Virus record (IMG/VR): IMGVR_UViG_3300020182_000024
Length of the DNA stretch: 20,000 nt
Strand: one strand, 5' to 3'
Origin: an uncultured virus (IMG/VR IMGVR_UViG_3300020182_000024)
Lineage: Duplodnaviria; Heunggongvirae; Uroviricota; Caudoviricetes
Position numbers and translations under genes: made by a program
The notes under the pieces: model-generated
What the model was told of the DNA's origin: nothing
Seen by the model: the letters and a program-made list of their open reading frames with translations, nothing else
The model's database searches: none
Shown: in pieces, positions 1-20,000 of the stretch
How the letters are laid out: each line of letters opens with the position of its first letter
How positions within the stretch are numbered: the stretch's first letter is position 1

Positions 1-325
1 AACTGTTTATTACCCTTATAGGATTTCCTGCACCTTCTGTTAACCCTACACTGACAGAAACTATCTGTTTAGAGTTACGTATTTTTTCAATCTTAGATAT
101 AAACTCTACCGATGAGATATCCTCTCCTGTTGAAGAGTTTATATCTGTGATAACACCTGAGAAGGATATTTCATCCCCTGTGTTAACTATATTATCAGAA
201 GCAAAACCCCCATCCTCTACTGGAAATTCAGTTACCCTAGAGTTTAATACCCTTGATACTTGTAATGTAGCATCCATAGAAAATGCTTCTTCATTTGTAA
301 TTATAGAAAAATACCTTATAGCCAT
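1..325 (-). CDS. Dit-like / baseplate hub-initiation protein, 3'-truncated by the window edge (not in the ORF track)
   Basis: My translation from ATG at 325 reads MAIRYFSIITNEEAFSMDATLQVSRVLNSRVTEFPVEDGGFASDNIVNTGDEISFSGVITD... and stays open to position 1. An AGGAG RBS at 331-335 overlaps the tape measure stop. The 'VTEFPVEDG..SD' motif and the position right after the tape measure gene fit Dit-like proteins. Confidence 0.75.
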   Translation of the reverse strand, partial: MAIRYFSIITNEEAFSMDATLQVSRVLNSRVTEFPVEDGGFASDNIVNTGDEISFSGVITDINSSTGEDISSVEFISKIEKIRNSKQIVSVSVGLTEGAGNPIRVINS

Positions 326-334
326 ATTAACTCC

Positions 335-2365: not shown

Positions 2366-2383
2366 ATTAATCGCTAGCCTCTA

Positions 2384-2650
2384 TCATTTATTAGGATTCT
2401 TTTCTTCTTGATCTTTTTCATGTGCTTGTACATAAGCACTTCTAGTTTCAATATATTCCATTAGGTCATATATCTCTGGGAGTGTTCTATCATATAGTAA
2501 TGTTCTAACACACCTATCACCCTCTGGAGTGTGTTCACTAGATGCTAACCCATAAGCAATTCTTTTTGTAAGAGAGAGGGAAGACTTCTCTTCCACTAAC
2601 TTCTCTATTCTTTTGACGTGTCTTCCGTAGTTGTCATTTTGTTCTTTAAA
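2384..2650 (-). CDS. Tail assembly chaperone, -1 frame extension (gpT-like part of a G-T fusion)
   Basis: The ORF-track entry 2384..2746 is in the -1 frame relative to 2605..3090 and lies between the chaperone and tape measure genes. The slippery heptamer T-TTA-AAG at 2650-2644 is in the correct phase. Confidence 0.72.
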   Translation of the reverse strand, partial: FKEQNDNYGRHVKRIEKLVEEKSSLSLTKRIAYGLASSEHTPEGDRCVRTLLYDRTLPEIYDLMEYIETRSAYVQAHEKDQEEKNPNK

Positions 2651-3090
2651 AGGATTTCTGAAAAAATGTCTGTTGTCCCCATCTCCAGAAATCCTTGTGT
2701 AAAAGTCTCTGGGGTTAAGCCATTCTCCTGTACACTCCAAATACATAAAGGGATAATCTTTCCTTTCTCTTTACCTTTGAAATCTTCTTCTAGGTTAACT
2801 GGTGCGCCATCTACATATAAACCAGTTAGTAACTTCTTAACTAAGTCTAATACATTTGCTTTACCCATAGACATATTTAATGCCTGTGCTAAATGTTTAC
2901 CTATATCTAAATCTTTGAAATCTTCTCCTGTGAAAAGACCTCCATCATAAGCTGCACCTATAGGCAGAGCTAATAATTCCATTAGTTGTTGACCAACAGT
3001 AATGGAATCTGTTAAATTCATTAATTTGAGGGCATATTCTTTACCATCAAACTCTTTCTGTACTACACCTGCTTTACTTAAAGCATTCAT
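2605..3090 (-). CDS. Tail assembly chaperone (gpG-like, 161 aa)
   Basis: Lies between tail tube and tape measure, has a strong AGGAGGAG RBS and an N-terminal 'EFDGKEYALKLM' typical of these chaperones, and overlaps a -1 frame ORF. Confidence 0.82.
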   Translation of the reverse strand: MNALSKAGVVQKEFDGKEYALKLMNLTDSITVGQQLMELLALPIGAAYDGGLFTGEDFKDLDIGKHLAQALNMSMGKANVLDLVKKLLTGLYVDGAPVNLEEDFKGKEKGKIIPLCIWSVQENGLTPETFTQGFLEMGTTDIFSEILLKNKMTTTEDTSKE

Positions 3091-3112
3091 TATAATCTCC
3101 TCCTACATACTA

Positions 3113-3128
3113 AGGGGCAAAAGCCCCT
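3113..3128 (-). terminator. GC-rich hairpin after the tail tube gene (partial terminator or stabilising stem)
   Basis: AGGGGC-TTTT-GCCCCT on the minus strand directly after the tube stop codon. The following T tract is poor (TAGTAT), so read-through is likely. Confidence 0.5.
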
Positions 3129-3133
3129 CCTAT

Positions 3134-3634
3134 TTACCCAACAAATGAGCCTAAGTTATCAATACCTGCCTTAATCTCAGCAAGGATACCTACTTCATCT
3201 ACGATACCTTCTGGTGTAACTAAGAACTGCATACCCTCTGCAAATATCTTCCAAGTTCTTTCACCATACTCTGCACTATAATCTAATGTAGGTGTAGCTT
3301 GGATATGACAATCAGATAAAAGAGCAATAGCACCACCTGATGAATCTTTAAATGTAAAAGACCCTCTAGTTTTAGTATTGTTAAGTTCTTCATAGTTAAC
3401 CACACTTGATAATGCGATATCTGCTGGAGAACCAGCAAACACTGTTAACTCAAACATGCCTGTTCTATTAGGATTAACTGCAATAGCAGATTCCCCAAAA
3501 GCACCCACTGCTACGGTTGTTAGATCTTCATTACGAGAGATACTTGCAAAGTTACTTGCGACACCTGTAATATTAAATCCAAGGAAAGCAATCTCTACTT
3601 TCCTACTTGAATAAATTGGTAATGCACCTGCCAT
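3134..3634 (-). CDS. Tail tube protein (DUF3277-like, 166 aa)
   Basis: Immediately follows the sheath. Motifs YSSRKV, 'VGAFGE...NPNRTGMFELTVFAGSP' and 'RTWKI' match this tube class. Confidence 0.85.
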   Translation of the reverse strand: MAGALPIYSSRKVEIAFLGFNITGVASNFASISRNEDLTTVAVGAFGESAIAVNPNRTGMFELTVFAGSPADIALSSVVNYEELNNTKTRGSFTFKDSSGGAIALLSDCHIQATPTLDYSAEYGERTWKIFAEGMQFLVTPEGIVDEVGILAEIKAGIDNLGSFVG

Positions 3635-3649
3635 TATATCTATCTCCTA

Positions 3650-5005
3650 TTAAGATTGGGCTTCATAAGTTAAGCTACCATTAATGTTTGCTATAATTTG
3701 AATAGCCCCTGCTAGATACATAGTTACCGAACCATTAAATGTACGTGCTGCCACTTCACCAAATGCAATGCTTGCACGTTTAGGGAAGTCAATAATATAA
3801 GCATTATCTTCTTGTAAGATATGTGGAATAACACCTCTAGATTTATATCTATCGAGTGTAGAAGTAATAACATTCTCAATAAGAGAAATACCTGCATCTG
3901 TGTAGATAATCTTCTTCTTATTAATAATAAGATTCTGTAGATTTTCAGTTAATCTGGCATCCAAGAAGTCTCTATCCCTAATAATATCTACGAAGAATGT
4001 AGCACCACCTGATACTGTACCTCTACGTGTAATACCTAATCCACCTACATTCTCAGTGAAAGAAGCATTCTTATTAGTTAGATTGGTTTTATCTGTAACA
4101 GATAAGTAGTTACCTGTTAGTGGATTTTTAGCTGCACCTAAGCTTTTAGATAAGTTACCTGCAATTACATACTTACCTGCATCTTGCGGAGCAAACATAG
4201 CTAGGTAAACCATCTCTGGGAACGTAGTATCTGCTGTGTGATGAAACCAATATGATGTACGGAATCTTGCATTCTGTTTTAACACAGAAGGAATATCTGT
4301 AGCACTCTCTGAATATACACCTAGATCAGCTTGATTCTGAGTAGACACCCAGTATTGCTTTTCAGTTGATTCAATGTATAGTGATAATGCTTCTACGAAA
4401 GCTACTGAGTGGTCACTAGAGGCTACAAAGTAGAAGTCATCATCTTCATCTCTAATAGCATCCATCATATCTGCTGCATCTTCTGTAGTAACAACAGTAT
4501 ATGTAAGACGACCTACGTCTGTGACTGCATAAGCTGCTGTACCAGTTTTAGACAATGTAATACTACCTGTGTCATCTACAACCGTAACACCTGTTGGTGA
4601 ACCTAATGCTGTAACCAATGCTGTAGCAATAGTTGTAGCTGTTTCAGAACCAGTGGTAGTTGTAAACGTTGCTGTAGTAGTTACGTCTGCTGTATCAAAT
4701 ACTTCTAGTGTATAAGTTTGACCTGCTGATGTAGCTGCCTCTGGTGTGAATGTAATACTATCTACTTCCCTACGACCTACTTTAACTGTACTGGGGTTAA
4801 TATCCTGTGAGAATGCTGCTGTCATTGCTGCATAAACATTAGAATCAGATGGGAAGTCATCTGTAGTAGGTTTAATTACATAAGAACGTGAACGCTCTTT
4901 AAACCATACGTGTGCATCTGTAAACATTGGTGTACCAAAGGATGCCCTTGATACTGCTGCAACATCGAGACTGATATTGACTGTTACTATCTGTTGATAA
5001 GACAA
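3650..5005 (-). CDS. Contractile tail sheath protein (DUF3383-like, 451 aa)
   Basis: N-terminal 'IVTVNISL...FGTPM' and C-terminal 'FVDIIRDRDFL...IIYTDAGISLIE...LAGAIQ...INGSL' are characteristic. It precedes the tube gene. Confidence 0.9.
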   Translation of the reverse strand: MSYQQIVTVNISLDVAAVSRASFGTPMFTDAHVWFKERSRSYVIKPTTDDFPSDSNVYAAMTAAFSQDINPSTVKVGRREVDSITFTPEAATSAGQTYTLEVFDTADVTTTATFTTTTGSETATTIATALVTALGSPTGVTVVDDTGSITLSKTGTAAYAVTDVGRLTYTVVTTEDAADMMDAIRDEDDDFYFVASSDHSVAFVEALSLYIESTEKQYWVSTQNQADLGVYSESATDIPSVLKQNARFRTSYWFHHTADTTFPEMVYLAMFAPQDAGKYVIAGNLSKSLGAAKNPLTGNYLSVTDKTNLTNKNASFTENVGGLGITRRGTVSGGATFFVDIIRDRDFLDARLTENLQNLIINKKKIIYTDAGISLIENVITSTLDRYKSRGVIPHILQEDNAYIIDFPKRASIAFGEVAARTFNGSVTMYLAGAIQIIANINGSLTYEAQS

Positions 5006-5034
5006 GTTGTTTCTCCTGTTCGAGATTTATTTAA

Positions 5035-5625
5035 TTATGGGGTGGGGCATGTAACACTAATATCTATCTGTAAAGCGTTATCCTCTTCATCTGGATCTTC
5101 ATCAACTTCACCAGTTAAAACTATTGTTTCTATAATTCCTGTTTCTATATCTGTCACTACATCTGCAATACCTACAGATAGATTAAAAGATGCCACTTCT
5201 AGGTAATCTGTTGCTAACTTCTGAGGGAGCGAATTAACATTGAATACATCTTTTAATCCTGCACCTGTATTAGTAGTTATAGCATCTAGTACACGACCTA
5301 TTCTGAATCTACCTTTAAGATCTTGAGCTATAGATAATGAGTTATCTCCATATACTGTATATTGCAAAAGTAAGTTAAAATAGGATGCAAAGAATGGATT
5401 ATCATTCTCATCTACACCTGTATTATTTAACCAACTGCCTGAGTCATCTATAGTAAGAATATCTACAGTGATGTAAGGTGTCTCAGGGATTAAATCTTTA
5501 GGTCTTTCTGTGATAACTGTGGGAACATTTTGACCTGATTTTCTATATGTACTTAAATGTTCTCCAACTTCCTCGCTTGCTATTCTTTTAAATTCTGTTA
5601 GAATAGCTTTAGTATTTATTGCCAT
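5035..5625 (-). CDS. Tail terminator / neck-tail completion protein (196 aa)
   Basis: Last neck gene before the sheath, with a 'PETPYITVDIL' motif. Mainly a synteny call. Confidence 0.65.
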   Translation of the reverse strand: MAINTKAILTEFKRIASEEVGEHLSTYRKSGQNVPTVITERPKDLIPETPYITVDILTIDDSGSWLNNTGVDENDNPFFASYFNLLLQYTVYGDNSLSIAQDLKGRFRIGRVLDAITTNTGAGLKDVFNVNSLPQKLATDYLEVASFNLSVGIADVVTDIETGIIETIVLTGEVDEDPDEEDNALQIDISVTCPTP

Positions 5626-6005
5626 TAGTTAGACCTCTGAGATGATCGTTTATCCTCTCTCACAAATAATGTTTTATAGTGATCAGCTCTAGACCCATGT
5701 CTTGCCCAATTAGCTACTTTAAATGCAATATAACTATTACCATCTATGGTTGTTTTATCTGCCTTGAGATTATTAAAAGGATCAGCTTCTTTAATAGGTG
5801 TCTTACCCAGCACGACTTGTACATCATTAGATGTAATACCATCTGGGAAGATAATCTGTTCAGATCCTTGTCTATAAGGTTGAATACTATATAATCCATC
5901 ACCTATAATTTCAGGAGGGAAATCTTCAAACTCATCATTATCATTAAACTCCCCTCCTGTATGACGTTCAATGGTTAAAGGTGTTACAAATATTCTTGAA
6001 CGCAT
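5625..6005 (-). CDS. Head closure / stopper protein (126 aa)
   Basis: Size, position and the motifs 'SIQP' and 'ADKTTIDGNSYIAFKVANW...HYK'. Confidence 0.62.
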   Translation of the reverse strand: MRSRIFVTPLTIERHTGGEFNDNDEFEDFPPEIIGDGLYSIQPYRQGSEQIIFPDGITSNDVQVVLGKTPIKEADPFNNLKADKTTIDGNSYIAFKVANWARHGSRADHYKTLFVREDKRSSQRSN

Positions 6006-6500
6006 CTATCCACCTACCTCGTTTACTTTATTATTATAAGAAGTCTTGTAAGCTGATTTAGATTTAAGTTCACCAGTATCTAATAGTGGAGTTGTGTTAT
6101 CTCCAACGATAGGCATAAACAATCCAGCTTTACCAAATAGTTCAGAATACTCTTCCCTGAGAACAAGCCCTATCTCCATTAGGAAGGTTTCACTTGCTGA
6201 ACCCTGTAGTAAATTCTTAGAGAACTTCTTAAACACTTTCTGAATCTTAGGGTTCTTTAAAAACTTCTTATTTTGTAATTGAGTGAAAGCGAATGCAGCT
6301 AGTGGGTTTTTGATGACACCACTATTTGTTAATCCTACAGACCACAACTTTAACAACTCTGTATGTGTTAAGTCTGAGCCTGTGTGAATACCGCTATCTT
6401 CAAAATGACCCACTTGTACATTATTCTTAGAAAGACTATTAAGATTTTTTAGTATTTTTTCTAAGTTTCCCTTTTTCTTTACTATCTTCGCTGTTATCAC
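6006..6500 (-). CDS. Neck / tail-completion protein (HK97 gp10-like class, 164 aa)
   Basis: GTG start with an AGGAG RBS, 'VQVG' near the N-terminus and C-terminal 'TPLLDTGELKSK' resembling the PLIDTG.L motif. Confidence 0.65.
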   Translation of the reverse strand: MITAKIVKKKGNLEKILKNLNSLSKNNVQVGHFEDSGIHTGSDLTHTELLKLWSVGLTNSGVIKNPLAAFAFTQLQNKKFLKNPKIQKVFKKFSKNLLQGSASETFLMEIGLVLREEYSELFGKAGLFMPIVGDNTTPLLDTGELKSKSAYKTSYNNKVNEVGG

Positions 6501-6579
6501 TTACATCTCCTTTTTCAACAAAGACTTCCTTATCTTCTAAGATGTTTCCATCCTTATCCTTAACTGTTCTTTTTATCAT
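6439..6579 (-). CDS. Small highly charged hypothetical protein (46 aa, below the ORF-track cutoff)
   Basis: MIKRTVKDKDGNILEDKEVFVEKGDVSDNSEDSKEKGKLRKNTKKS*. Its ATG overlaps the upstream TGA (ATGA), and it fills the otherwise empty 6501-6575 gap. Confidence 0.55.
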   Translation of the reverse strand: MIKRTVKDKDGNILEDKEVFVEKGDVSDNSEDSKEKGKLRKNTKKS

Positions 6580-7019
6580 AAAATTAACCTATCTGAGTTA
6601 GAAGTGATTGTGGATTTATAACAGGATATTGTATCTTCCTGATTATGGAAATATATTCTAGTGTTACTCTTCATCTTGTAACCACCTTTAGGAAGGTAGG
6701 GGCAAAGATTAGGTAAATCATCTATAAACTCTCTCCATATATTCTTATTATCTGTAGAGAAATAATATTCAACACCATCAACCCTCTCTCTTGTGATGTT
6801 ATCCCCATCTACAATATATAAAGAGTTATTCCTTATAGCTGCAACCTTTAATGACTTACATAATGCTTCAGAGTAATACTGCTCATCATCTTCTAGAATG
6901 TTATTACTAATAACATTCTCTGCTAGTGTTTTTAATTGACTCTCTTTTAATACATTAACATCTGGAGGTAGATATTCCACCAAGTCAGAAACTAACTCAT
7001 CTATATTTATAATGGGCAT
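6576..7019 (-). CDS. Head-tail connector/adaptor protein (147 aa)
   Basis: First gene after the major capsid, with an AGGAGG RBS. It has a helical N-terminus plus the 'RERVDGVEYYF' beta-hairpin motif seen in adaptors. Confidence 0.6.
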   Translation of the reverse strand: MPIINIDELVSDLVEYLPPDVNVLKESQLKTLAENVISNNILEDDEQYYSEALCKSLKVAAIRNNSLYIVDGDNITRERVDGVEYYFSTDNKNIWREFIDDLPNLCPYLPKGGYKMKSNTRIYFHNQEDTISCYKSTITSNSDRLIL

Positions 7020-7039
7020 TTACCCCTCCTTGCAAATAA

Positions 7040-7080
7040 TATATTATTAATAACTCTACATAAGAACTATTAATAATATA
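7040..7080 (-). repeat. AT-rich inverted repeat (13 bp perfect, up to 18 bp with G-U on the minus-strand RNA)
   Basis: TATATTATTAATA (7040-7052) and TATTAATAATATA (7068-7080). Confidence 0.8.
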
Positions 7081-7099
7081 GCCTCCAAAAAGGAGGCTA
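7072..7099 (-). terminator. Intrinsic terminator after the major capsid gene
   Basis: TAGCCTCC-TTTTT-GGAGGCTA stem-loop at 7079-7099 followed by TATTATT, 15 nt downstream of the capsid stop. Confidence 0.65.
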
Positions 7100-7114
7100 A
7101 GGCTTCTCTAACTA

Positions 7115-8209
7115 TTAATCAGAAGAAGTGAAGTGCTGGATAAGCTCTGGGTACTTATTCATGTAAAGAACGTTTTGCTCTTCATACAAAGTAACACCTT
7201 CGCGGTCATGCTCTTTCATAAAGCCATACTTAGGCATTGCTACCATATCGTAGTAATCTTTATGTAAAATGGTAGAGTAGATACGTGCAAACATGTTAGT
7301 TGCGCCTACAGGAATCATAATACCATTATCTGTTGGAAGGAAAGGAGTTCCAGTTACACTATCTGGGACACGTACATAAGTAACACCAGTTAATGCAGAT
7401 GTGAAGTGTCTACGCATAAATGATAAACTTTGCCCTTCGAAGTTAGAACGTGATACACCATAAGCTGTTAGATCTAATGGAGTTGCAGGGTTAAGTGCAA
7501 ATACACCAGCAGCTACAGTTTGTTCTAAATCAAATAATTTATCGAACAATGTACCACCACATACCATGAAGACTGCTTGATATGAAATACCAGCTTTAGA
7601 AGCATTCTCTTGTAGTGCGTCTACTTTAGCATTAATCTTGTTAACAACATCGTCTGCTGCACTTCCTAGTAAGAGATCAGTAGCAACCGCTCGTGAACTG
7701 CCTACGATATCAGTGTGGAAGTTGTAAGATTTGGCTGCGCCACCTGCTGTATAGTTTGTATCTGCTGTAAGAAGTTGTGCATAAGACATTTCTTCAAACA
7801 GATTCCAACCGCGTTGCATTTTAACGGTTAATTCAGCTACACGATCTTCAATAGAGTATGCACCTTCCTCACCAAACTTACGTTTACCATAAACATCTGC
7901 AACAGAAACTTTACCACTAATTCCGAAAGAACCTGTACGGAACATTTTCTCTTTACCAGAATCTAGTGTAACCTTACCGCCGCCAACTTCATCAAAACGC
8001 TTACCAGATACTAACTGTTGGTTTTCGATGATTTCGTCATAGACTACTTTATCACTAATTTGGAAATGGTTCTCAGTCATGCCACTTAAAAGGGCTGTCA
8101 TGAAGGCAGGTTGTACACCTGCTTTACGAGATACTGCTGATGTAACATCAACTAACTCAAAAGAATTACTCTCTGAGCGTACTGATTTATCAATAGATTG
8201 AACTTGCAT
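7115..8209 (-). CDS. Major capsid protein (HK97 fold, lambda gpE-like class, 364 aa)
   Basis: Size, position after scaffold and decoration genes and before a terminator, and C-terminal 'EEQNVLYMNKYPELI'. Codon usage is biased as in highly expressed genes. Confidence 0.9.
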   Translation of the reverse strand: MQVQSIDKSVRSESNSFELVDVTSAVSRKAGVQPAFMTALLSGMTENHFQISDKVVYDEIIENQQLVSGKRFDEVGGGKVTLDSGKEKMFRTGSFGISGKVSVADVYGKRKFGEEGAYSIEDRVAELTVKMQRGWNLFEEMSYAQLLTADTNYTAGGAAKSYNFHTDIVGSSRAVATDLLLGSAADDVVNKINAKVDALQENASKAGISYQAVFMVCGGTLFDKLFDLEQTVAAGVFALNPATPLDLTAYGVSRSNFEGQSLSFMRRHFTSALTGVTYVRVPDSVTGTPFLPTDNGIMIPVGATNMFARIYSTILHKDYYDMVAMPKYGFMKEHDREGVTLYEEQNVLYMNKYPELIQHFTSSD

Positions 8210-8223
8210 ATTTTAGTTATTCC

Positions 8224-8706
8224 TTATAAGTAAGTTGGAGTTACTACAGTAGCCTTAGCAGAAGTAGTAATACGTTGTTTTTCTAGCTGAGCTAAGAATA
8301 AGCCTTGAGCTGTTGCATCTGCACCATTCCAGATAATACCATCTGTTAGGATGTTAGCATCTCCACGATAGAGAACAGTCATTTTAGCGTCTGCGTCTGC
8401 TAGGTTTGTGTCTTCATAATTCAAACCTTTGCCTTGATACTCACCTACAGATAATGCAATAACACTACCATCTTTAAGAGGTGAATTACCTGTAGTAATA
8501 GCTGCTGCAATATCTTGTGCTACATACTTCTCGAATCGAGAGTTTGCATTAACCCAGATCAATGCCACACCGATATTATCTACTGTGCCTGTACCACCAA
8601 CATCAACTGTTGCAAAGCTATTATCAACAGCATTTTCATTTGAATAACTATCTTCTGCTACTAGCAAAGAAGATAAAAGTTTACGACTTACTGAAATATC
8701 CGGCAT
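8224..8706 (-). CDS. Head decoration / stabilisation protein (160 aa)
   Basis: Ala/Gly/Val-rich beta-type sequence between scaffold and capsid, with 'VLYRGDA' and 'LEKQRI' near the C-terminus. Confidence 0.7.
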   Translation of the reverse strand: MPDISVSRKLLSSLLVAEDSYSNENAVDNSFATVDVGGTGTVDNIGVALIWVNANSRFEKYVAQDIAAAITTGNSPLKDGSVIALSVGEYQGKGLNYEDTNLADADAKMTVLYRGDANILTDGIIWNGADATAQGLFLAQLEKQRITTSAKATVVTPTYL

Positions 8707-8711
8707 TATTA

Positions 8712-9344
8712 TTATGCTCCTTCTTGTAATTTAGCGACTTTTTCTGCGATTTTCTCATTAAGAGATTTCTCAACGTCTTGTTCTGGTTGACCTTCATAGC
8801 CAAGCTCTTTATCAATTTCTTGATCTTGTTTAGCAGCTTTCTCTACATCAACCTTAGTTGTATATAACTCTTCAAATGCTTTGGTTAATTCAGTGCGCTC
8901 TTCTGCACTAACACCTTGCATAGCATCTACAACTTTATCTACATTAGATAAATTAAACTTACTTAATTCTGCACCAAGTTCTTTACTAACGAGTGCTTTT
9001 TTAAGTGTTGCAATTTCATCTTGCGCTTTTTGTAAAGCACTGGTTTCTTGATCTGACATTTCGTTTCCTTTAGTCAAGTTTTCATCTTCCCCTGCATCAC
9101 TCTTGACAGAGGAGAGGGATTGGGCATCACCACCTTGTTTATACAAGGGAGTAAATTCTTCACCATACTTTTCTAGTAGGGCTGTTTGTTCTTCTGTTAA
9201 ATCTTCTTTACACGTATATCTATTCTTTAATAAGATAGTTTCCATACCAGAAGCAGCGAATCCTTGGGACTCATCTGTCATTGATATTTCAGATATATCT
9301 AAGTCATAAAGATTAGCCTTCGCTTTGCCATTAGATTCACTCAT
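8712..9344 (-). CDS. Capsid scaffolding protein (210 aa)
   Basis: Acidic coiled-coil protein between protease and decoration/capsid genes, with repeated [LV]xK[AS] motifs. Confidence 0.75.
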   Translation of the reverse strand: MSESNGKAKANLYDLDISEISMTDESQGFAASGMETILLKNRYTCKEDLTEEQTALLEKYGEEFTPLYKQGGDAQSLSSVKSDAGEDENLTKGNEMSDQETSALQKAQDEIATLKKALVSKELGAELSKFNLSNVDKVVDAMQGVSAEERTELTKAFEELYTTKVDVEKAAKQDQEIDKELGYEGQPEQDVEKSLNEKIAEKVAKLQEGA

Positions 9345-10095
9345 CTTCTATCTCCAATTTAATACCTTTAGCTCCGAAAGATGGTGCGCCTAATACACCA
9401 GATTTTTTATCTTCCCAAGCTAACTTATTATTCCATTTAGCAGATATAAGAGGAGTACCCGCTTTAACAAATTTATTACCTAATGTAGCATCTACTTCTT
9501 GAACCCAAGCTCTTTGCCAAGTAAAAGTGTTAGTCTTGTGTGCGTGGAATAAACCAGATGGTAATGTACCTTTATCAATCTTCTGATTAATATTATCTAC
9601 AGCTTTTCTAACCTCTTCTAATGATATAGTATCTCCATGTAGATCAACTTCACCAGCAGGTCGCCAGATAGGTTCAATAGAGATCATCTGCTCATCGTTG
9701 AAATCTTTAAGTAATTCAACTTCTTTCTTTTTAAAATACTTATCTAAGAAAGAAAATAAACTCTTTTCTGTAACTATAGTGTTATCTTCTTCTACACTAT
9801 TCAGTTTCCACTCTGTTAGCTTAATAGCCTCCATTACAGAGTCTTCTATCTCTACCTTGCCTACTTCATAAGTATAAGAGACAGCCCACTGGCGGTAGCG
9901 GCTTTTCTGACAATCCCACATAGAGAAGTAAACATAATTATCATCATGGTCTTCATAATAAGCCCACTCACCACAACCATTCATTTCAAATGCAGATTCA
10001 ATAGATTCTCGTAAGTATCTAACCTTATCTTGGTTGGTATTCTTATCTAATGACTCCTTAGATGGAGCTACTAGAATATCTTTTAATTTATTCAT
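9337..10095 (-). CDS. Prohead maturation protease, XkdF-like (252 aa)
   Basis: 'EVDLHGDTISLEEVRKAV', 'LFH' and 'WEDKKSGVLGAPSFGA' match XkdF-like serine proteases. It follows the portal gene. Confidence 0.82.
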   Translation of the reverse strand: MNKLKDILVAPSKESLDKNTNQDKVRYLRESIESAFEMNGCGEWAYYEDHDDNYVYFSMWDCQKSRYRQWAVSYTYEVGKVEIEDSVMEAIKLTEWKLNSVEEDNTIVTEKSLFSFLDKYFKKKEVELLKDFNDEQMISIEPIWRPAGEVDLHGDTISLEEVRKAVDNINQKIDKGTLPSGLFHAHKTNTFTWQRAWVQEVDATLGNKFVKAGTPLISAKWNNKLAWEDKKSGVLGAPSFGAKGIKLEIEDE

Positions 10096-14298: not shown

Positions 14299-14503
14299 TT
14301 ATCTCTCCATCTTGGATTGCTATGTCATCTTCTGTGATGACTACTTTATATTCTGTTGTAATATCTTCTACACTAATAGTAGGGGTAGAGTCACTTATTA
14401 TTATAGTATCTATGACAGTTTCTACCCCTATAGCATCAACAGGGACTAGATAATTATTAACTTCTCCTACCATTGCATTATTTAAACATGGTGTTAAAAT
14501 CAT
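14276..14503 (-). CDS. Small acidic Ile/Val-rich hypothetical protein (75 aa)
   Basis: ATGA-coupled to the 1066-aa gene and overlaps the next gene by 23 nt. Confidence 0.65.
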   Translation of the reverse strand: MILTPCLNNAMVGEVNNYLVPVDAIGVETVIDTIIISDSTPTISVEDITTEYKVVITEDDIAIQDGEINVKVEGC

Positions 14504-17500
14504 ACCTTATCATACCCTGCTGCATTTTCACCTAAATTAATAGGATTACCCTCTGCATCTTTTATTGCTACTCTTTTTAGCTCTGTTGTGCCATTATTAT
14601 CATAAGTGACAATAAAGTAAGCACCCTCTTTAGTAGATACCACAGTTACTCCATCTTGCCCTATATAACGAGTATTGTTGTCATGGTATTTAACCATAAG
14701 TTCTGTATCGCTCTTTATAGACTGAGATGTTGTCTCAAGAGATAAGCCATTCTGTATTTCATTTACAGTGGGTATATCACTTACTTCTGCTAATGTATCT
14801 AATCTAATATCATTACTAAGTAATGGATTAGTTGGTATGGAATCCACAGAGTCTTGTGTAGCTAAGCCATTCTGTATTTCTGTAACACTAGGAGGATTAG
14901 CCTTATAACTATCTTTATTAGTATAACTATCTAAAGCAGAATGTAGCTCTACTTCCGAAACTCCAGCATCACTAACATTAGCATCTAAGTAATCCAACCT
15001 GCTATCTGTAGTTAATACAGGGTTAGTAGGTATTGTACTCACTGTTTGAGCTATCTGGGTTATCTGTTGAGAGTTAGAGTTATACAACCTATCATTTGGA
15101 ACCCACTGTATGCTTGCATTAGAAGCCCCTGTGGTTATGATGGCTTCTCCTTTGTAATGCCTCCATATCCCCCCAAATATAACAAGTTCAGAATTAGGCT
15201 TATTATTTTTTAATTTTAACCTACCTCTAATTTCTATATTTCTTTCATCTGGAACGTAAGCAAGGCCTAGAGCATCATAATATAAAGCACCTAATGCAGT
15301 AGTGTTTATCCATCTCCACCAAGCAATACCTTTTTGACAGTCGAAACTATCATTTACATCATTAACATTAATCTCTACATCTGTGAAATTAGCTGTTAAT
15401 TCACCTCCATTACTAGAGTCAACTAGTGACCCATCGAAGCCCACTATACCATCAATAATCATATTATTATGAATTAGATCATCTTCTTGTGACTCGATCA
15501 ATGTAATACCTGATTCTGTCATAACTGCAAACAATCTTAGTGGTATTTTAGCTTCTACTCCTGATTGCCAATTAGCTTTAACTAATATAACATCACCTAG
15601 CTGAGTGGTAGATGTCCCTCCTACGAAGGTACTTGTGGTATAGCCTTGTCCACCAGATACAATAGAATTGTCTATCAAAGATGGCACAGTAATTATCTCT
15701 GCCCCATATTGATCAATAATCTTAGTTGATCTTGTATAGTTAATAACTACAACTCTAGTTCCATCTATTATGTTAGGGAGGTTAATAGCTAACTCATCTG
15801 CTGGAGTTTCCCATATATAATTAGGATCAAATCCACAGTTGATAAATATACCCTGTAGGTAAGATGTAGATGTAGTTCCTGCTACCCGTCTAACTTTTAT
15901 TTTAAATAACCACTGAGATGTATTCGTTATCCCTTGTGCAGCAATTTCTGCATTCCAATTAGATAATGTTAGGTCTTGATAAGTGGAATAAGTACCTGCT
16001 ATTGTCTTAATGCTAAATTGAATATTAAAGTTAGAAGTTTGACTCCCATTCAATTCTATTGATGTGGCTGCATATGTACCTGATACAATATTACTTTCTG
16101 TCTCTACTTCTACAGAAGTATTACCCAAATGAAGCCTAGAACCTATGTGTAGAATATCCGATTCACTTCCATTTATTATGGAAGTTTTACTATCACTTGC
16201 ATTATAAAAAGGATGAGATACTAAAGAGCCTAATGTTTTATCTAGTGATTTATATATCTCAGAAGAGTACATACCATAAGCAGGTGAAAAATCATAACCT
16301 ATTATTGAAGTCCTTAGGAACTGAGTATTTAAACAGGGTATATTACCTATATCATTATCTACGTTAGAAACAATATTTGCTAATAACCACTGCTTCTGAC
16401 TATATACATTTATATCTCTAGCACCTCTTTCAGATGTACCATTATGTTCTACATTTAGAATAGATCCACTAGAGGTTTGATTGAGGTTAAATACTTCATA
16501 AAATGTACTTCCCACTGGAGTTACTATGTTAGCTAGATGAACGTCTGTACCGATAGCTTGAACTAAATGACGCATTTGACTAGGCCAAGGCTCTGTACCA
16601 TACCTAGTGAATCTAGATATAGAGTGATTTACAGCCAAACCTTGGGATATTACTAGCCAATAAGGGCAAGTATCTCCTATCTTATAGGTTGTAGACCATA
16701 TTAAATTCTCTATCTCCCCACCTTGTTCATTATACACTCTATGAACACCACTGTTACCTACAAATGTCTTTAATGTGCCAATCCTACCAACACAATTAGG
16801 TCTGACTCTAGGATAAAAACTATTTGTTTTTTGTGTAACAAAATTACATCTTAATTCTTCTATATCGTAATAGAGAAGAGATGAATTATTAACTACTTCT
16901 GTTGAAGAGGTATTCTCTGTTTGAAATATAATCTTACCATGATCTCCCCTAGGAAGGTTTAATCTTGTATTCTCAGTACCCAAACCTATGTACACTAAAT
17001 TATCTATATCACTATCACTGAAAGAATCTGCTGTAAAGGCTTGAGTACTATCTATTATAGCGGAGTCTCTTATTCTATAAGTACCTCCGCTACGTAAATC
17101 TGGGTCTATTATAAATGTCTTCTCTATATCTAAGATAGAGCCAGAAGCATTAAACTGGCACTCATTAAATTCCCATACAATACTAGGTATCTGTACTGCA
17201 CCTGAAGGTATCTTTCCGTTAACTCCATCTCCAAATGAAACAATACCATTTGAGTATGTAAAATGCTCACCTCTAGCATCATTCCTTATATTAGAAAGGG
17301 ATGATACGCAAGTCCACTGTACATTATCAATTAGAAGGAAAGGAACTTTAGGGTAATCTCTTCCATCTAAATCTTGAGGAAGTGTTATAGTTATATCGGG
17401 TGTTACACCATCTGCAACTGGTAGGTCTATATACTGACCTCTGAATATGAAATTACCTCCACCCGTCAAGGTGGAATTGGTTGCAGGAGCATGTCTAATG

Positions 17501-17700
17501 AATATAGGATTAGTATTATTACCATTAACCCTTAATGTCCTAAACCTTGTATTTACAAACATAGTTAATATTTGTACTGTAGACTTCTCAATAATTAACT
17601 CCGAATCATTGGTAAAATCTATTACTACACCATCTACTAACTCAGGATTACCTTCTAGGTCATTTTCATAATCCATTACCCCTGATATAACTATTGCCAT
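14500..17700 (-). CDS. Large putative virion fibre/spike-like protein (1066 aa)
   Basis: Long uninterrupted ORF with an Asn/Ser/Ile/Thr-rich, beta-solenoid-like composition, a 'GIVSFGDGVNGKIP' motif and C-terminal repeats. The ORF is certain; the function is inferred. Confidence 0.55.
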   Translation of the reverse strand: MAIVISGVMDYENDLEGNPELVDGVVIDFTNDSELIIEKSTVQILTMFVNTRFRTLRVNGNNTNPIFIRHAPATNSTLTGGGNFIFRGQYIDLPVADGVTPDITITLPQDLDGRDYPKVPFLLIDNVQWTCVSSLSNIRNDARGEHFTYSNGIVSFGDGVNGKIPSGAVQIPSIVWEFNECQFNASGSILDIEKTFIIDPDLRSGGTYRIRDSAIIDSTQAFTADSFSDSDIDNLVYIGLGTENTRLNLPRGDHGKIIFQTENTSSTEVVNNSSLLYYDIEELRCNFVTQKTNSFYPRVRPNCVGRIGTLKTFVGNSGVHRVYNEQGGEIENLIWSTTYKIGDTCPYWLVISQGLAVNHSISRFTRYGTEPWPSQMRHLVQAIGTDVHLANIVTPVGSTFYEVFNLNQTSSGSILNVEHNGTSERGARDINVYSQKQWLLANIVSNVDNDIGNIPCLNTQFLRTSIIGYDFSPAYGMYSSEIYKSLDKTLGSLVSHPFYNASDSKTSIINGSESDILHIGSRLHLGNTSVEVETESNIVSGTYAATSIELNGSQTSNFNIQFSIKTIAGTYSTYQDLTLSNWNAEIAAQGITNTSQWLFKIKVRRVAGTTSTSYLQGIFINCGFDPNYIWETPADELAINLPNIIDGTRVVVINYTRSTKIIDQYGAEIITVPSLIDNSIVSGGQGYTTSTFVGGTSTTQLGDVILVKANWQSGVEAKIPLRLFAVMTESGITLIESQEDDLIHNNMIIDGIVGFDGSLVDSSNGGELTANFTDVEINVNDVNDSFDCQKGIAWWRWINTTALGALYYDALGLAYVPDERNIEIRGRLKLKNNKPNSELVIFGGIWRHYKGEAIITTGASNASIQWVPNDRLYNSNSQQITQIAQTVSTIPTNPVLTTDSRLDYLDANVSDAGVSEVELHSALDSYTNKDSYKANPPSVTEIQNGLATQDSVDSIPTNPLLSNDIRLDTLAEVSDIPTVNEIQNGLSLETTSQSIKSDTELMVKYHDNNTRYIGQDGVTVVSTKEGAYFIVTYDNNGTTELKRVAIKDAEGNPINLGENAAGYDKV
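14743..14880. repeat. 18-bp exact direct repeat inside the 1066-aa gene
   Basis: TAAGCCATTCTGTATTTC at 14743-14760 and 14863-14880, 120 nt apart, encoding EIQNGL twice. Confidence 0.85.
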
Positions 17701-17989
17701 AATCTCTCTCTAATAATTTCTGGGTATTTAATAGATTATTAAGTTCTTTGATATCTTCACTATCCTGAAATTCTCTATCTAAATAATTTTTATTTTCTAT
17801 ATCTAAGATAGCTTGATATACCAAAGAGGAAAAACCCTGTATATCTTCCACAGATTCTTCACAAGGAGGTGAACCTGTCCCTATACACAATTTGGAAAAA
17901 GCAGGGAATTTTATTCCTGAATCATGACTATTAATAGTGCCATCATCCCTAAGACTTACTTCTTCTCCACAAAATTGACACCTACTCAT
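17666..17989 (-). CDS. Hypothetical protein with a putative Zn-binding N-terminus (107 aa)
   Basis: CQFC...H...CIGTG pattern; overlaps both neighbouring genes. Confidence 0.65.
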   Translation of the reverse strand: MSRCQFCGEEVSLRDDGTINSHDSGIKFPAFSKLCIGTGSPPCEESVEDIQGFSSLVYQAILDIENKNYLDREFQDSEDIKELNNLLNTQKLLERDYGNSYIRGNGL

Positions 17990-18173
17990 GTATATTCCTC
18001 ATATGAAGAGGGTATAGATTATTCTCTATATCTCGTAAAGAGTATCTTCCTATATCGTAGGTAGTGTCAGATATATGGCAATTTTCACATATATCCTTTC
18101 TAACCTGAATATTCTGTTTATATTCTTTAACTGGGAGTTGACACTCTGTACAAGTTATGTTATTATTATCCAT
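17982..18173 (-). CDS. Small putative Zn-ribbon protein (63 aa)
   Basis: Two CxxC motifs (CTEC, CENC). First ORF downstream of the leftward promoter, but without a clear RBS. Confidence 0.55.
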   Translation of the reverse strand: MDNNNITCTECQLPVKEYKQNIQVRKDICENCHISDTTYDIGRYSLRDIENNLYPLHMRNIHE

Positions 18174-18277
18174 AGTAATTCAATTTATTATTAATTAAGT
18201 GGGGTGGTATGATTTAATGTGAAGATGCCCCTCCCTTCACGTTCGTATCTTATATATCAAACTATTTAAGATAAAGC

Positions 18278-18307
18278 TTGACTTTCTCTGTAAAATGTGT
18301 ATATAAT
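18278..18307 (+). promoter_or_regulatory. sigma70-type promoter, rightward
   Basis: TTGACT (18278-18283), 18 nt spacer, TATAAT (18302-18307). Confidence 0.7.
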
Positions 18308-18350
18308 AAGTTATAGGTAACTTATTTTGTTTCTCTACCCTATACTTACT

Positions 18351-18379
18351 ATTATGGCATACTTTTTCATAAAAGTCAA
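18351..18379 (-). promoter_or_regulatory. sigma70-type promoter, leftward toward the morphogenesis operon
   Basis: Minus strand TTGACT, 17 nt spacer, CATAAT with an extended -10 TG (TATGCCATAAT). Confidence 0.75.
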
Positions 18380-18437
18380 GCTTTTTATTCACTTTTGTTA
18401 TAAAAAGATTAAATTAATACTATTTACACCTATTTTA

Positions 18438-18466
18438 TTGACATTTTATGTAGAAATATGTAATAT
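18438..18466 (+). promoter_or_regulatory. sigma70-type promoter for the 99-aa ORF
   Basis: TTGACA (18438-18443), 17 nt spacer, TAATAT (18461-18466). Confidence 0.6.
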
Positions 18467-18499
18467 ATACACCTAAACATAACTAAGAGAAGTAGAAAT

Positions 18500-18799
18500 A
18501 TGGATAATATTAAAGATATTTTATGGGAAAAGGGTATTACTACACATCAAGAATATTTAGCTAGACGGGAGTTTTATGGATATATGAATAAGCCATCAGA
18601 AAAACAAGGTGGTATTGATGATATAAGTTATGGTAATATGTCAAGTTACCTTACAGAATCATCTGATAACCAAGATAACAATATAGGATCTGGGATATTA
18701 ATAGATATAGATAAGTTTGGATGGGAAGAGGGGTATGATAGAGAGATGCGGGACTACCTTAATCGTGGTTATGAATCATTTAAGATATATGATGAATAG
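18500..18799 (+). CDS. Hypothetical acidic protein (99 aa)
   Basis: Only credible plus-strand ORF. It is flanked closely by promoters on both sides and has no motif I recognise. Confidence 0.65.
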   Translation: MDNIKDILWEKGITTHQEYLARREFYGYMNKPSEKQGGIDDISYGNMSSYLTESSDNQDNNIGSGILIDIDKFGWEEGYDREMRDYLNRGYESFKIYDE

Positions 18800-18802
18800 T
18801 AC

Positions 18803-18831
18803 TTGACATTTGGTAAATAATATGCCATAAT
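18803..18831 (+). promoter_or_regulatory. sigma70-type promoter upstream of the tRNA cluster (distal)
   Basis: TTGACA (18803-18808), 17 nt spacer, CATAAT (18826-18831) with extended -10 TG. Confidence 0.75.
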
Positions 18832-18882
18832 GGTATATATGGAGTAAGCTTTATTAGTAGTTATATTTATATTAAATAAAGC

Positions 18883-18912
18883 TTGACTTTTGGGTGGAAA
18901 TACCCCTATAAT
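18883..18912 (+). promoter_or_regulatory. sigma70-type promoter upstream of the tRNA cluster (proximal)
   Basis: TTGACT (18883-18888), 18 nt spacer, TATAAT (18907-18912), with an AT-rich UP-like region upstream. Confidence 0.75.
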
Positions 18913-18939
18913 AAAAGTAAGAGATAAGTAAAGGTTTAT

Positions 18940-19015
18940 TGGCGTGTAGCTCAATAGGTAGAGCGTATGACTGTTAATCATGTGGTTGTAGGTTCGATGC
19001 CTACCACGCCAGCCA
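18940..19015 (+). tRNA. tRNA-Asn: tRNA-Asn (GTT)
   Basis: Full cloverleaf: acceptor TGGCGTG/CACGCCA, D stem GCTC/GAGC, anticodon arm TATGA-CTGTTAA-TCATG, T arm GTAGG-TTCGATG-CCTAC, discriminator G and encoded CCA. Confidence 0.96.
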
Positions 19016-19019
19016 TATT

Positions 19020-19118
19020 AGATAAAGTGCGTAGTGCAGTATGATAGGTTCGATTCCTTGTTTAACTCTGGGAGTGATAAGACGTAGTATTGTGGGTGCA
19101 AATCCCACCGCTTTATCT
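19020..19118 (+). ncRNA. About 100-nt tRNA-like RNA with two T-loop arms and no anticodon arm
   Basis: 10-bp terminal stem AGATAAAGTG/CGCTTTATCT, with AGG-TTCGATT-CCT (19046-19058) and GTGGG-TGCAAAT-CCCAC (19092-19108). It sits between two tRNAs. Confidence 0.65.
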
Positions 19119-19125
19119 TTATTAA

Positions 19126-19202
19126 GTGCCAGAAGCATAACAGGTATATGCACTCCGCTCATAACGGAGAGATACTAAGTTCAAGACTTAGGTGGCACAC
19201 CA
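19126..19202 (+). tRNA. tRNA with CAT anticodon (probably Ile2/lysidine type; elongator Met not excluded)
   Basis: Acceptor GTGCCAG/GTGGCAC with a G7.G66 mismatch, D stem GCAT/ATGC, anticodon arm CTCCG-CTCATAA-CGGAG, T arm CTAAG-TTCAAGA-CTTAG and A-CCA end. Confidence 0.85.
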
Positions 19203-19209
19203 ATTTAAT

Positions 19210-19284
19210 GCAACTATAGTGTAATGGATAGCACAAGTCTCTTCTAAAGATTTAGTCCAGATTCAAATTCTGGTAGTTGCGCCA
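19210..19284 (+). tRNA. tRNA-Arg: tRNA-Arg (TCT)
   Basis: Acceptor GCAACTA/TAGTTGC, D stem GTGT/GCAC, anticodon arm AGTCT-CTTCTAA-AGATT, T arm CCAGA-TTCAAAT-TCTGG and G-CCA end. Confidence 0.93.
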
Positions 19285-19287
19285 AAT

Positions 19288-19365
19288 TAATTTGTAGTTT
19301 AAGTGGATAAAACACCTACTACATAAGTAGTAGGAGATGTAAGGTTCAAGTCCTTGCCGAGTTAG
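19288..19365 (+). ncRNA. tRNA-like element or pseudo-tRNA with an aberrant anticodon arm
   Basis: Acceptor-like TAATTTG/CGAGTTA, D arm GTTT-AAGTGGATA-AAAC, arm CCTACTAC-ATAA-GTAGTAGG and T arm GTAAGG-TTCAAGT-CCTTGC. No encoded CCA. Confidence 0.7.
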
Positions 19366-19370
19366 TAAAG

Positions 19371-20000
19371 AGTGTTACAAAATAGCAGTTACTACTTCCC
19401 CTTCCTAAGTATTATTAAGTTAATATGGATGTTGGGCTGTAACACTTACTTAATGCCTTTATCTCGTAGGGGGTATTATTTAAACAGTTTACGATATACG
19501 CTGGCATTGCCTATCGGTGTTAGAAGAGATGAATAACTACTGTGGATTCATAGAAGTTATAGGGTAGGCCATATTGATAATATCTCTACCTGATTAGTCG
19601 AGGTAAAATAATATCCGCAAGTAGGCTCGTAGCTTGCAAGGTAGAGATATTATCAATATTGTACTATATGTAATACAATAACGTGTTTAATGAGTTATAT
19701 GTAGTACATTCAAGAAGTAAGAGGTTTTCGATGCAGTTAGCAACCTCTCTAAATACAAACTAGACCAACTCTGAGATTGAGTATAATCTAGCAAGATGAA
19801 TAACGTGAAATTTCAGCACTTGTCACTTATAAAAGATAAGCCTATTCGTAATACTGTGAAGTATAATAAAATGGGTTTTATAGGTGGCTGCATAACCTAA
19901 CGGCGGCTATAGAAATATAGGATTAGGTGTGTGAAGAGGACGGTGTATTGCAAGGCTATTCTTAGCGTGTTTTGCAATAGAAACAGGTGGATTCGTGATC
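19371..20000 (+). ncRNA. Putative large structured ncRNA (or array of structured RNAs), continuing past the window end
   Basis: No ORF in the track. About ten adjacent helical domains with plus-strand G-U pairs, two GNRA-capped hairpins and a 21-bp perfect stem, located downstream of the tRNA promoters. Confidence 0.62.

Follow-up and report, generated by a model that had tools for sequence, protein, structure and literature searches.

GOLLD and ROOL are cage-forming RNAs of phages and prophages that are often found near tRNA islands and whose function is unknown, according to the sections of the account on which we draw here (bioRxiv 10.1101/2024.12.08.627333); the same sections report one marine GOLLD example downstream of tRNA-Met. 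We examined a 20,000-nucleotide (nt) stretch of DNA, hereafter the window, from an uncultured virus of the Caudoviricetes (IMG/VR record IMGVR_UViG_3300020182_000024), for which an earlier note made from the letters alone had proposed a large ornate non-coding RNA at positions 19371-20000, beside a phage tRNA cluster. A smaller precedent for such a location is phage T4 'species 1/2', small stable RNAs of unknown function that share a transcript with the tRNA cluster and are cut free by tRNA-processing enzymes; at about a quarter of the size of the RNA described below, they are likened to it by description rather than by sequence. ROOL, by comparison, is similar in length to the ~580 nt of the present RNA.

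The central proposal of the earlier note held: a large ornate plus-strand non-coding RNA does adjoin the tRNA cluster, and we place the probability that it is conserved and structured and belongs to a class not catalogued before at roughly 0.9. The niche is that of GOLLD, with tRNAs (18940-19364) just upstream on the same strand and myovirus-type genes in the window. In the traits reported for the two classes, the present RNA resembles ROOL (8-mer cage) in being phage-encoded, often placed near tRNA islands and highly branched, with no known protein partner or function, and GOLLD (>800 nt, 14-mer cage) in its tRNA-island location and its modular build of one conserved and one variable half (same sections of bioRxiv 10.1101/2024.12.08.627333). 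The universally conserved part of GOLLD is its 3′ region, whereas the present family shares a 5′ end of ~95 nt. It is also shorter than GOLLD and has no nested tRNA, and it differs from ROOL in sequence and helix layout and in occurring in uncultured marine phage contigs only.

The suggestion of a divergent GOLLD or ROOL, by contrast, had to be dropped. Rfam 15 was scanned with permissive filters and E-values up to 10 over the window (18800-20000) and four homologous loci, which we denote by L numbers (L040 900-1950, L008 2100-3300, L005 4000-6500 and L003 3000-4800), and none of the five scans gave a GOLLD, ROOL, intron, RNase P or tmRNA match. At gathering thresholds only tRNAs were returned, and the sole matches inside the stretch in question were to snoRNA models, 30-35 bits under threshold. 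Lacking a covariance-model match to GOLLD or ROOL, the RNA is filed under neither; the new class that the note offered as its other option agrees with the absence from Rfam 15, which holds for the window, the full-length L040 copy and three relatives. We found no description of the RNA in the literature on large phage RNAs, within which the catalogue of Fremin, Bhatt and Kyrpides (2023) was checked in part only. That work reports 10,006 covariation-supported candidates from IMG/VR-type data and, in the parts considered, tRNA-like and cis-regulatory motifs (PMC10690425); five IMG/VR contig identifiers are absent from six of its supplementary files, with files 1, 2 and 4 outside this check, so that a prior listing is possible. 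The RNA is best described as a new class within a known kind, the large ornate phage RNAs beside tRNA islands, and its carriers are a small clade of uncultured marine myovirus-type phages.

A conserved fold of about 580 nt

Four contigs with 72-79% identical terminase show patchy similarity to the stretch, with a common block that starts at about window position 19713. A degenerate pattern derived from this block was scanned against viral and metagenome contigs, and a looser version against viral contigs. The degenerate pattern yielded 5 true loci out of 8 in viral contigs and 16 out of 23 in metagenome contigs, the seven other metagenome loci being one identical human-gut sequence without the stem. 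Seven of the 64 loci found with the looser pattern, three of them new, match a covariance model (R1) that represents the ~95-nt 5′ domain only and not the full 583-nt form. After removal of duplicates, 17 members remained, 16 of which are distinct over the 5′ domain.

Several matches were rejected: one inside a 531-amino-acid (aa) open reading frame (ORF) of a Colwellia metagenome-assembled genome contig (L043), one in G+C-rich coding sequence (L017), one chance motif match (L051), and the 57 looser-pattern loci (among L052-L115) that fail R1. Twelve loci inspected among these failures were either a recurring look-alike or isolated sequences without the P1 stem; the look-alike, present on many viral contigs, agrees with the loose pattern but not with the RNA model, and is apparently a conserved but unrelated sequence. 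Scanning 185,579 prokaryote species genomes with the pattern gave chance matches only, and an exact scan of viral contigs for the hairpin arm gave none. With blastn against 50,697 cultured phage records, 19300-20000 had no match, and within 14500-19300 the tRNA-Asn gene alone matched. R1 found no member in the four nearest cultured phages (H101, HM1, 2L372X and 166E36-1; best E 0.3). No second copy occurs in the window or in the 20-kb loci, the RNA being single-copy in every locus.

The earlier note placed the 3′ end of the RNA outside the window, and this is borne out by the metagenome locus L040, which is 100% identical to window 18225-20000 and then continues for 1251 nt (window position = 21252 − L040 position, L040 being read on its minus strand). 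Past the window end it carries ~290 nt of non-coding sequence, into which the conserved RNA continues, and then an ORF of 52-59 aa. Together with L040, which stands for the window, four further loci (L008, L007, L025 and L030) give five distinct full-length homologues with an aligned length of 576-594 nt (alignment A4). The 5′ start of the conserved unit required a revision of the earlier note, which had described one RNA of more than 600 nt from 19371: there is a large ornate RNA, but the conserved unit begins at about 19713 and is ~580 nt long. From 19713 to 20000 the window and L008 differ by 3 substitutions in 288 nt (1.0% divergence).

Folding the five full-length homologues together with RNAalifold gave 124 consensus pairs in 18 helices. 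Compensatory changes, with both sides altered, occur in 46 of the 124 pairs, compared with 26.0 ± 2.9 after column shuffling (0 of 500 shuffles reached 46) and 2-9 when the partners were slid. Likewise, 92.1% of the 620 cells are paired, against 36.5-50.5% with partners slid by 1-3 columns. For the part that lies wholly inside the window, 25 of 53 pairs are compensatory, in helices 2 and 5-9. The plus-strand G-U bias noticed earlier also holds within the conserved element: G-U pairs fill 106 of the 620 cells and A-C pairs 11, an excess that identifies the folded strand as the window plus strand, the same as that of the tRNAs. This asymmetry would be unexpected for duplex DNA signals, and the compensatory pairs lie in non-palindromic helices; contigs from RNA libraries, described below, also cover the element. 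We therefore regard it as scarcely credible that the region is a DNA-level feature (a replication origin, packaging site or protein-binding inverted repeats) or a set of chance helices in an AT-rich spacer, even though it has 36% G+C, is rich in inverted repeats and outfolds shuffled sequence on both strands.

Observations made on the whole region 19371-20000 fared well as descriptions. All 12 of the helices listed in the earlier note are present where it put them, with 5-21 pairs each; their non-Watson-Crick positions are mostly G-U, with ten G-U pairs and one mismatch over all 12, and both GNRA loops are there (GTGA at 19856-19859 and GAAA at 19913-19916). As to the helices from 19720 onward, covariation backs four of the five listed, but 19760-64/19787-91 is not conserved, its 5′ partner being found in just 5 of 14 homologues. 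Folding better than dinucleotide shuffles is true of the region only in part: z is −3.44 on the plus strand and −3.15 on the minus strand over 19371-20000 (20 shuffles), but the parts are uneven. With 100 shuffles each, z is −0.02 for 19371-19573 and −4.1 for 19371-19712, the latter because of two long hairpins of 21 bp (19571-19659) and 15 bp (19660-19708), and the complete 583-nt element, extended past the window, reaches −4.33 on the plus and −3.70 on the minus strand. Folding energy alone is weak, and the case therefore stands on comparison with relatives.

The region was also said to be free of ORFs, and it is in the sense that matters: the longest frames touching 19371-20000 are of 54 aa (19372..19536, plus strand), 35 aa (minus) and 34 aa (plus). 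Between the window and L008 the 54-aa frame has 16 differences, distributed 8/3/5 over codon positions 1/2/3, a spread that indicates no coding selection. The 34-aa frame (19796..19900) is 18 codons long in L007, and a 2-nt insertion or deletion shifts it in L025 and L030. Recoding does not help, as the L008 stretch gains no long frame under TAA=Q, TAG=Q or table 4, and a protein-coding gene, recoded ones included, was rejected for want of a conserved open frame in the region.

Coordinates of the individual features are given in Table 1. A long-range helix with its 5′ strands at 19791-19801 tentatively closes the RNA in the consensus model, bringing the 5′ and 3′ ends together; one of its pairs is compensatory (C-G in three sequences, U-A in two) and the remaining pairs are invariant. 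In this helix UGAUGA on the 5′ strand (AGAUGA in the window) faces CUGA on the 3′ strand (L040 ~965-985, minus strand), giving tandem G-A/A-G pairs plus a U-U pair. These letters are the same as those of box C/D, and since no 3-nt bulge is evident the motif is not a classical kink-turn. A further proposed pairing, joining the 3′ tail to the P1 loop, was abandoned. Within the element there is also a sigma-70-like match (10 of 12 positions; L040 1117-1089, minus strand, window-equivalent 20135-20163) that is kept in four of the five full-length homologues; in L007 its −10 hexamer is lost, and the overlapping hairpin is kept there via two compensatory pairs.

Table 1. Positions of the RNA, its upstream part, the tRNA genes and the promoter matches in the window. 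Pair counts are pairs with compensatory change out of all pairs of the helix.
Feature	Position	Strand	Remark
Sigma-70-like promoter match	18803-18831	+	L040 2449-2421 (−); 11/12 matches
Sigma-70-like promoter match	18883-18912	+	L040 2369-2340 (−); 11/12 matches
tRNA-Asn	18940-19015	+	ARAGORN; Rfam tRNA model
tRNA (CAU)	19126-19199	+	Rfam 45.8 bits; not called by ARAGORN
tRNA-Arg	19210-19284	+	ARAGORN; Rfam tRNA model
tRNA-like, sub-threshold	19288-19364	+	Rfam 25.3 bits vs threshold 29
Module X	19371-19573	+	holds five of the helices in the earlier note
Receptor-like hairpin	19404-19428	+	CCUAAG ... UAUGG flanking a 6-bp stem
Perfect 21-bp hairpin (19571-91/19639-59)	19571-19659	+	insertion/deletion polymorphism
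15-bp hairpin	19660-19708	+	immediately before the conserved RNA; in the place of tRNA-Trp in L011 and L032
5′ half of conserved structured RNA	19713-20000	+	continues to ~window-equivalent 20290 on L040
P1 hairpin	19720-26/19742-48	+	15-nt loop; loop core invariant in 16/16 distinct members
P2 hairpin	19768-71/19779-82	+	3/4 pairs, 16 distinct sequences; 79.6% of cells paired
Long-range closing helix (tentative), 5′ strands	19791-19801	+	partner is the conserved 3′ tail beyond the window; tandem G-A/A-G
Three-way-junction domain	19816-19946	+	helices 5-8
Junction closing helix	19816-20/19942-46	+	0/5 pairs; invariant
Junction long arm, lower	19822-33/19877-88	+	5/12 pairs
Junction long arm, upper, GTGA tip	19840-53/19865-76	+	5/12 pairs
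Junction second arm (helix 8), GAAA tip	19890-903/19920-32	+	9/12 pairs
Helix 9	19947-19978	+	6/10 pairs; 100% of cells paired; conserved 12-nt internal/terminal loop
Helix 10, 5′ strand	19984-19988	+	partner ~130 nt past the window end; 4/5 pairs

In addition to the comparison of homologues, contigs from RNA libraries bear on the expression of the element. Two metatranscriptome runs of one study, with two short contigs each, tile L040 962-1580 (window-equivalent 19672-20290); the four contigs differ from L040 at 2-8 positions each, and one ends within ~5 nt of the predicted 3′ end, a weak hint. Module X, the 21-bp hairpin and the downstream ORFs are not covered by these contigs, which carries no weight either way. 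Downstream of the element, three unrelated ORFs follow among the five full-length homologues (52-59 aa in L040, 40 aa in L008 and an AP2-domain ORF in L007, the start of which L025 and L030 appear by eye to share). A riboswitch or leader specific to one gene was rejected, there being no consistent association with one downstream gene family. Upstream, a tRNA on the same strand is found within the available flank in 6 of 14 distinct members, and in L011 and L032 tRNA-Trp ends 6 nt before P1; L007 has a partial tRNA match only, and the L025 flank is too short to tell. Given the varying downstream genes, the complex fold, the paired ends, the terminator of one short form (L034, below) and the RNA-library cover, we consider it rather probable that the tRNA transcript releases the element as a separate, stable RNA, and that it does not serve as a leader.

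Several points weigh against this interpretation. First, the alignment used for counting also supplied the structure under test, and the five full-length sequences amount to about three lineages, two pairs of them being 94-95% alike, so that the compensatory counts include inherited changes. Second, the half of the element inside the window (19713-20000) alone folds no better than shuffles (z −0.9, 100 shuffles), and where the P1 loop is predicted to pair with the 3′ tail, none of the 10 pairs is compensatory and 4 show breaks. Third, the RNA-library contigs are assemblies of one study that tell neither the strand nor the ends of the RNA, and they may stem from carried-over DNA. Fourth, 6 of 14 members have no tRNA upstream in the 834-2500 nt of flank examined. 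Lastly, all five full-length homologues have an ORF start 10-45 nt past the conserved 3′ tail with no intervening terminator, which also fits a leader.

It is because an ORF always follows so closely, without a terminator, that we keep some room for an unlikely alternative, in which the element is a cis-acting leader or processing module of a tRNA and early-gene operon that serves antitermination, as an RNase entry site or in translational control of the next ORF. Consistent with such a role, the widely shared part is a ~95-nt two-hairpin module at the 5′ end, which recalls antitermination RNAs such as HK022 put, and one alternative form (type B, below) has, as read from the alignment, a sigma-70-like promoter match within it, ahead of the final hairpin and the ORF. 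The unrelated ORFs downstream argue against a leader, as do downstream ribosome-binding sites that lie outside the conserved element and the terminator that L034 has of its own; furthermore, ~18 helices with multi-way junctions and a 5′-3′ closing helix exceed the needs of known leaders.

One 5′ module on several bodies

All 17 members have in common only the first ~95 nt, which comprise P1, a conserved joining strand and P2. Besides the full-length form, this P1/P2 module heads 12 further sequences, at least 11 of them distinct, with bodies unlike the full-length one, and the lengths of the bodies downstream of it differ (~200 nt, 250-420 nt or 580 nt). The presence of one module on differing bodies indicates that the RNA family is modular. 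Across the 16 distinct sequences, P1 pair 2 is G-C in 13, U-A in two and C-G in one, and pair 3 is C-G in 14 and A-U in two. The body that we call type B, known from four sequences, is likewise folded, and compensatory changes occur in 13 of its 81 pairs; a helix joining its 5′ region to its 3′ end was predicted independently and includes one compensatory pair.

Some members are bounded by terminator-like sites. L034 (minus strand, with P1 at 631 downwards) is a short form made of P1 and the joining strand, followed after less than ~200 nt by an 18-nt inverted repeat and then T8, as judged by eye; on this pattern it resembles a small RNA that ends at an intrinsic terminator of its own. In L030, L020, L009 and L031 a conserved, terminator-like hairpin followed by a T-run lies 20-70 nt upstream of P1. 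If that hairpin terminates transcription, the RNAs behind it would need their own promoter; no conserved sigma-70 promoter was found directly upstream of P1.

Another conceivable reading is a selfish or mobile cassette, such as a degenerate intron or homing-endonuclease cargo; the near-identity between phages would then be owed to recent transfer rather than to function. Swapped modules give the region a mosaic make-up, and 19713-20000 is 99% identical between near relatives compared with 70-90% in the flanks. In L007 the element lies between an ORF with an HNH_3 endonuclease domain (30.5 bits, cut-off 24.8) and the AP2-domain ORF (28.2 bits, under the 33.3 cut-off), flanks that fit the mosaic character of the region. 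Set against this, endonuclease ORFs stand beside some members only, the exon context is not conserved, and compensatory evolution across divergent members implies selection on the fold. A group I or group II intron was rejected in particular, given that none of the five Rfam scans (E up to 10) has an intron model match inside the element, that the flanks of the homologues differ and that there is no conserved host gene. A mobile cassette is thus very improbable. Outside the element, a group II D1-D4 model matches over the tRNAs at 19090-19213 (14.2 bits against 49) and a plastid group II D5 model matches L003 3846-3878 (17.6 bits against 53). The homing-endonuclease-type ORFs of L007 lie at 1594-2112 and 3099-3764, and a look-alike ORF without a Pfam match is found further downstream of the element in L008 (4553-5020).

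The lineage-specific upstream part

In sequence comparisons the remainder of the region named in the earlier note, 19371-19712, is a mosaic of lineage-specific pieces. The first of these, module X, occurs in the window/L040 and in L008 only, and represents either a spacer or, in this lineage, an extension of the RNA at its 5′ end. Its identity to L008 is 90.6% (19 substitutions in 203 nt, 9.4% divergence), and the changes comprise two compensatory pairs, four single changes that keep a pair and four broken pairs. The second piece, the 21-bp hairpin, is missing from L008, where the 86 nt of 19574-19659 are replaced by 10 nt. In L011/L003 a 74.7% identical copy of this hairpin immediately precedes tRNA-Trp, and the inner part of the hairpin in the window is similar to the 5′ portion of the tRNA-Asn gene (repeat D2). 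The third piece, the 15-bp hairpin, has six substitutions relative to L008, of which two break and two keep pairs (6 of 53 positions over 19660-19712, 11% divergence), and weak look-alike hairpins precede P1 in L009 and L031.

Module X contains a hairpin that we take to be, in sequence form, the 11-nt GAAA-tetraloop receptor, a motif expected 0.48 times per 20 kb over both strands. This receptor-like hairpin and the GAAA loop on helix 8 occur together in the window and L008 only; elsewhere the tip of helix 8 is GUGA (L007) or has no GNRA loop (L025 and L030). Part of 19371-19712 may accordingly be a peripheral extension that would dock the GAAA loop. On this basis the RNA might start at 19371, with module X and the two hairpins as peripheral domains of one RNA of ~920 nt. 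The positions between 19397 and 19436, which include the receptor-like hairpin, are unchanged between the window and L008, module X has its two compensatory pairs, and no ORF or terminator separates the tRNAs from the element. We nevertheless consider this longer RNA doubtful. Module X folds like its shuffles and has four pairs broken in L008, it is missing from the other 15 members, the 86-nt hairpin is present or absent among near relatives, and divergence is 9-11% in the upstream part compared with 1% in the core. Furthermore, the window and L008 are one lineage, so that the co-occurrence of loop and receptor counts as a single event.

Genomic setting and possible role

The window is a phage fragment in which the genes for tape measure, sheath, major head, portal and large terminase proteins form a block on the minus strand, and a short plus-strand block carries the tRNA genes. 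The label 'rV5-like myovirus' in the earlier note is not established: the structural genes are of myovirus type, and the nearest cultured terminase is that of Pseudoalteromonas phage H101, at 47% identity. Pseudoalteromonas is the host of the nearest cultured relatives. The record G001 represents the same phage, but spans window 1-9765 only. The structural block ends with a 1066-aa ORF (14500-17700, minus strand) that has no PHROG or Pfam match and, judged by position, is probably a tail fibre or host-recognition protein; a search with the 99-aa ORF at 18500-18799 gave no relatives. Under table 11 the late genes of the window give normal reading frames.

Across the cluster, the Rfam tRNA scores are, in order, 69.1, 45.8, 62.3 and 25.3 bits. 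The last match ends at 19364 and ARAGORN calls none past 19284, so there is no tRNA-model match within 19371-20000; the sub-threshold sequence at 19288-19364 has an 8-bp stem with a 4-nt loop where an 'anticodon arm' would be expected. In the relatives L008 (1633-1717) and L031 (836-920) there is an ochre-suppressor-like 85-nt tRNA with anticodon UUA ('tRNA-Stop' in ARAGORN; Rfam 47.8 and 48.3 bits), and window 19016-19058 is a mere remnant resembling the 3′ half of these tRNAs. A 117-nt match to the tRNA model in L009 (2179-2295, identical to L004 2701-2817, minus strand; 42.7 bits, model positions 1-71) suggests that, about 190 nt upstream of P1, a tRNA gene is interrupted by ~45 nt of inserted or intron sequence.

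Two sigma-70-like promoter matches within 18803-18912, just before the tRNA cluster, are likely to mark the start of a transcript that carries both the tRNAs and the RNA. Promoter-like sites in total are not above shuffles, and these two are consensus matches only; terminator-like sites are absent both from the interval up to the element and from the sequence behind it. Under the reading we prefer, a discrete RNA, transcription from these promoters would proceed rightward through the tRNA cluster into the RNA, and tRNA-processing nucleases would free it from the transcript, as the start 6 nt after tRNA-Trp in two relatives may illustrate. The RNA would then persist as a stable molecule with its 5′ and 3′ ends joined through the long-range helix, and could serve, as seems to be the case for GOLLD and ROOL, as a trans-acting RNA scaffold or assembly, without regulating any particular neighbouring gene. 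A trans-acting or assembling role is drawn by analogy only, from the shared niche and size, and this too counsels caution about the interpretation.

A bolder and rather improbable extension would be a superfamily of modular phage RNAs, headed by P1/P2 and carrying swappable bodies of 200-580 nt, in which the 580-nt form, expressed with the tRNAs, would assemble itself into a particle made of RNA alone, as the ROOL and GOLLD cages do, and the newly acquired GAAA loop and 11-nt receptor would provide an intra- or intermolecular docking contact.

The family as it stands has few members, all of them from uncultured phages with no known host. Structured RNAs of more than 500 nt and unknown function are rare, and OLE, GOLLD and ROOL all had unprecedented architectures. 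One 5′ domain on several bodies also constitutes a natural set of chimeras for asking, part by part, what such an RNA does. If the present reading is true, another sequence-unrelated class occupies the tRNA-island niche, which would suggest that this niche gives rise to large RNAs repeatedly and would bear on the role that such RNAs play for the phage.

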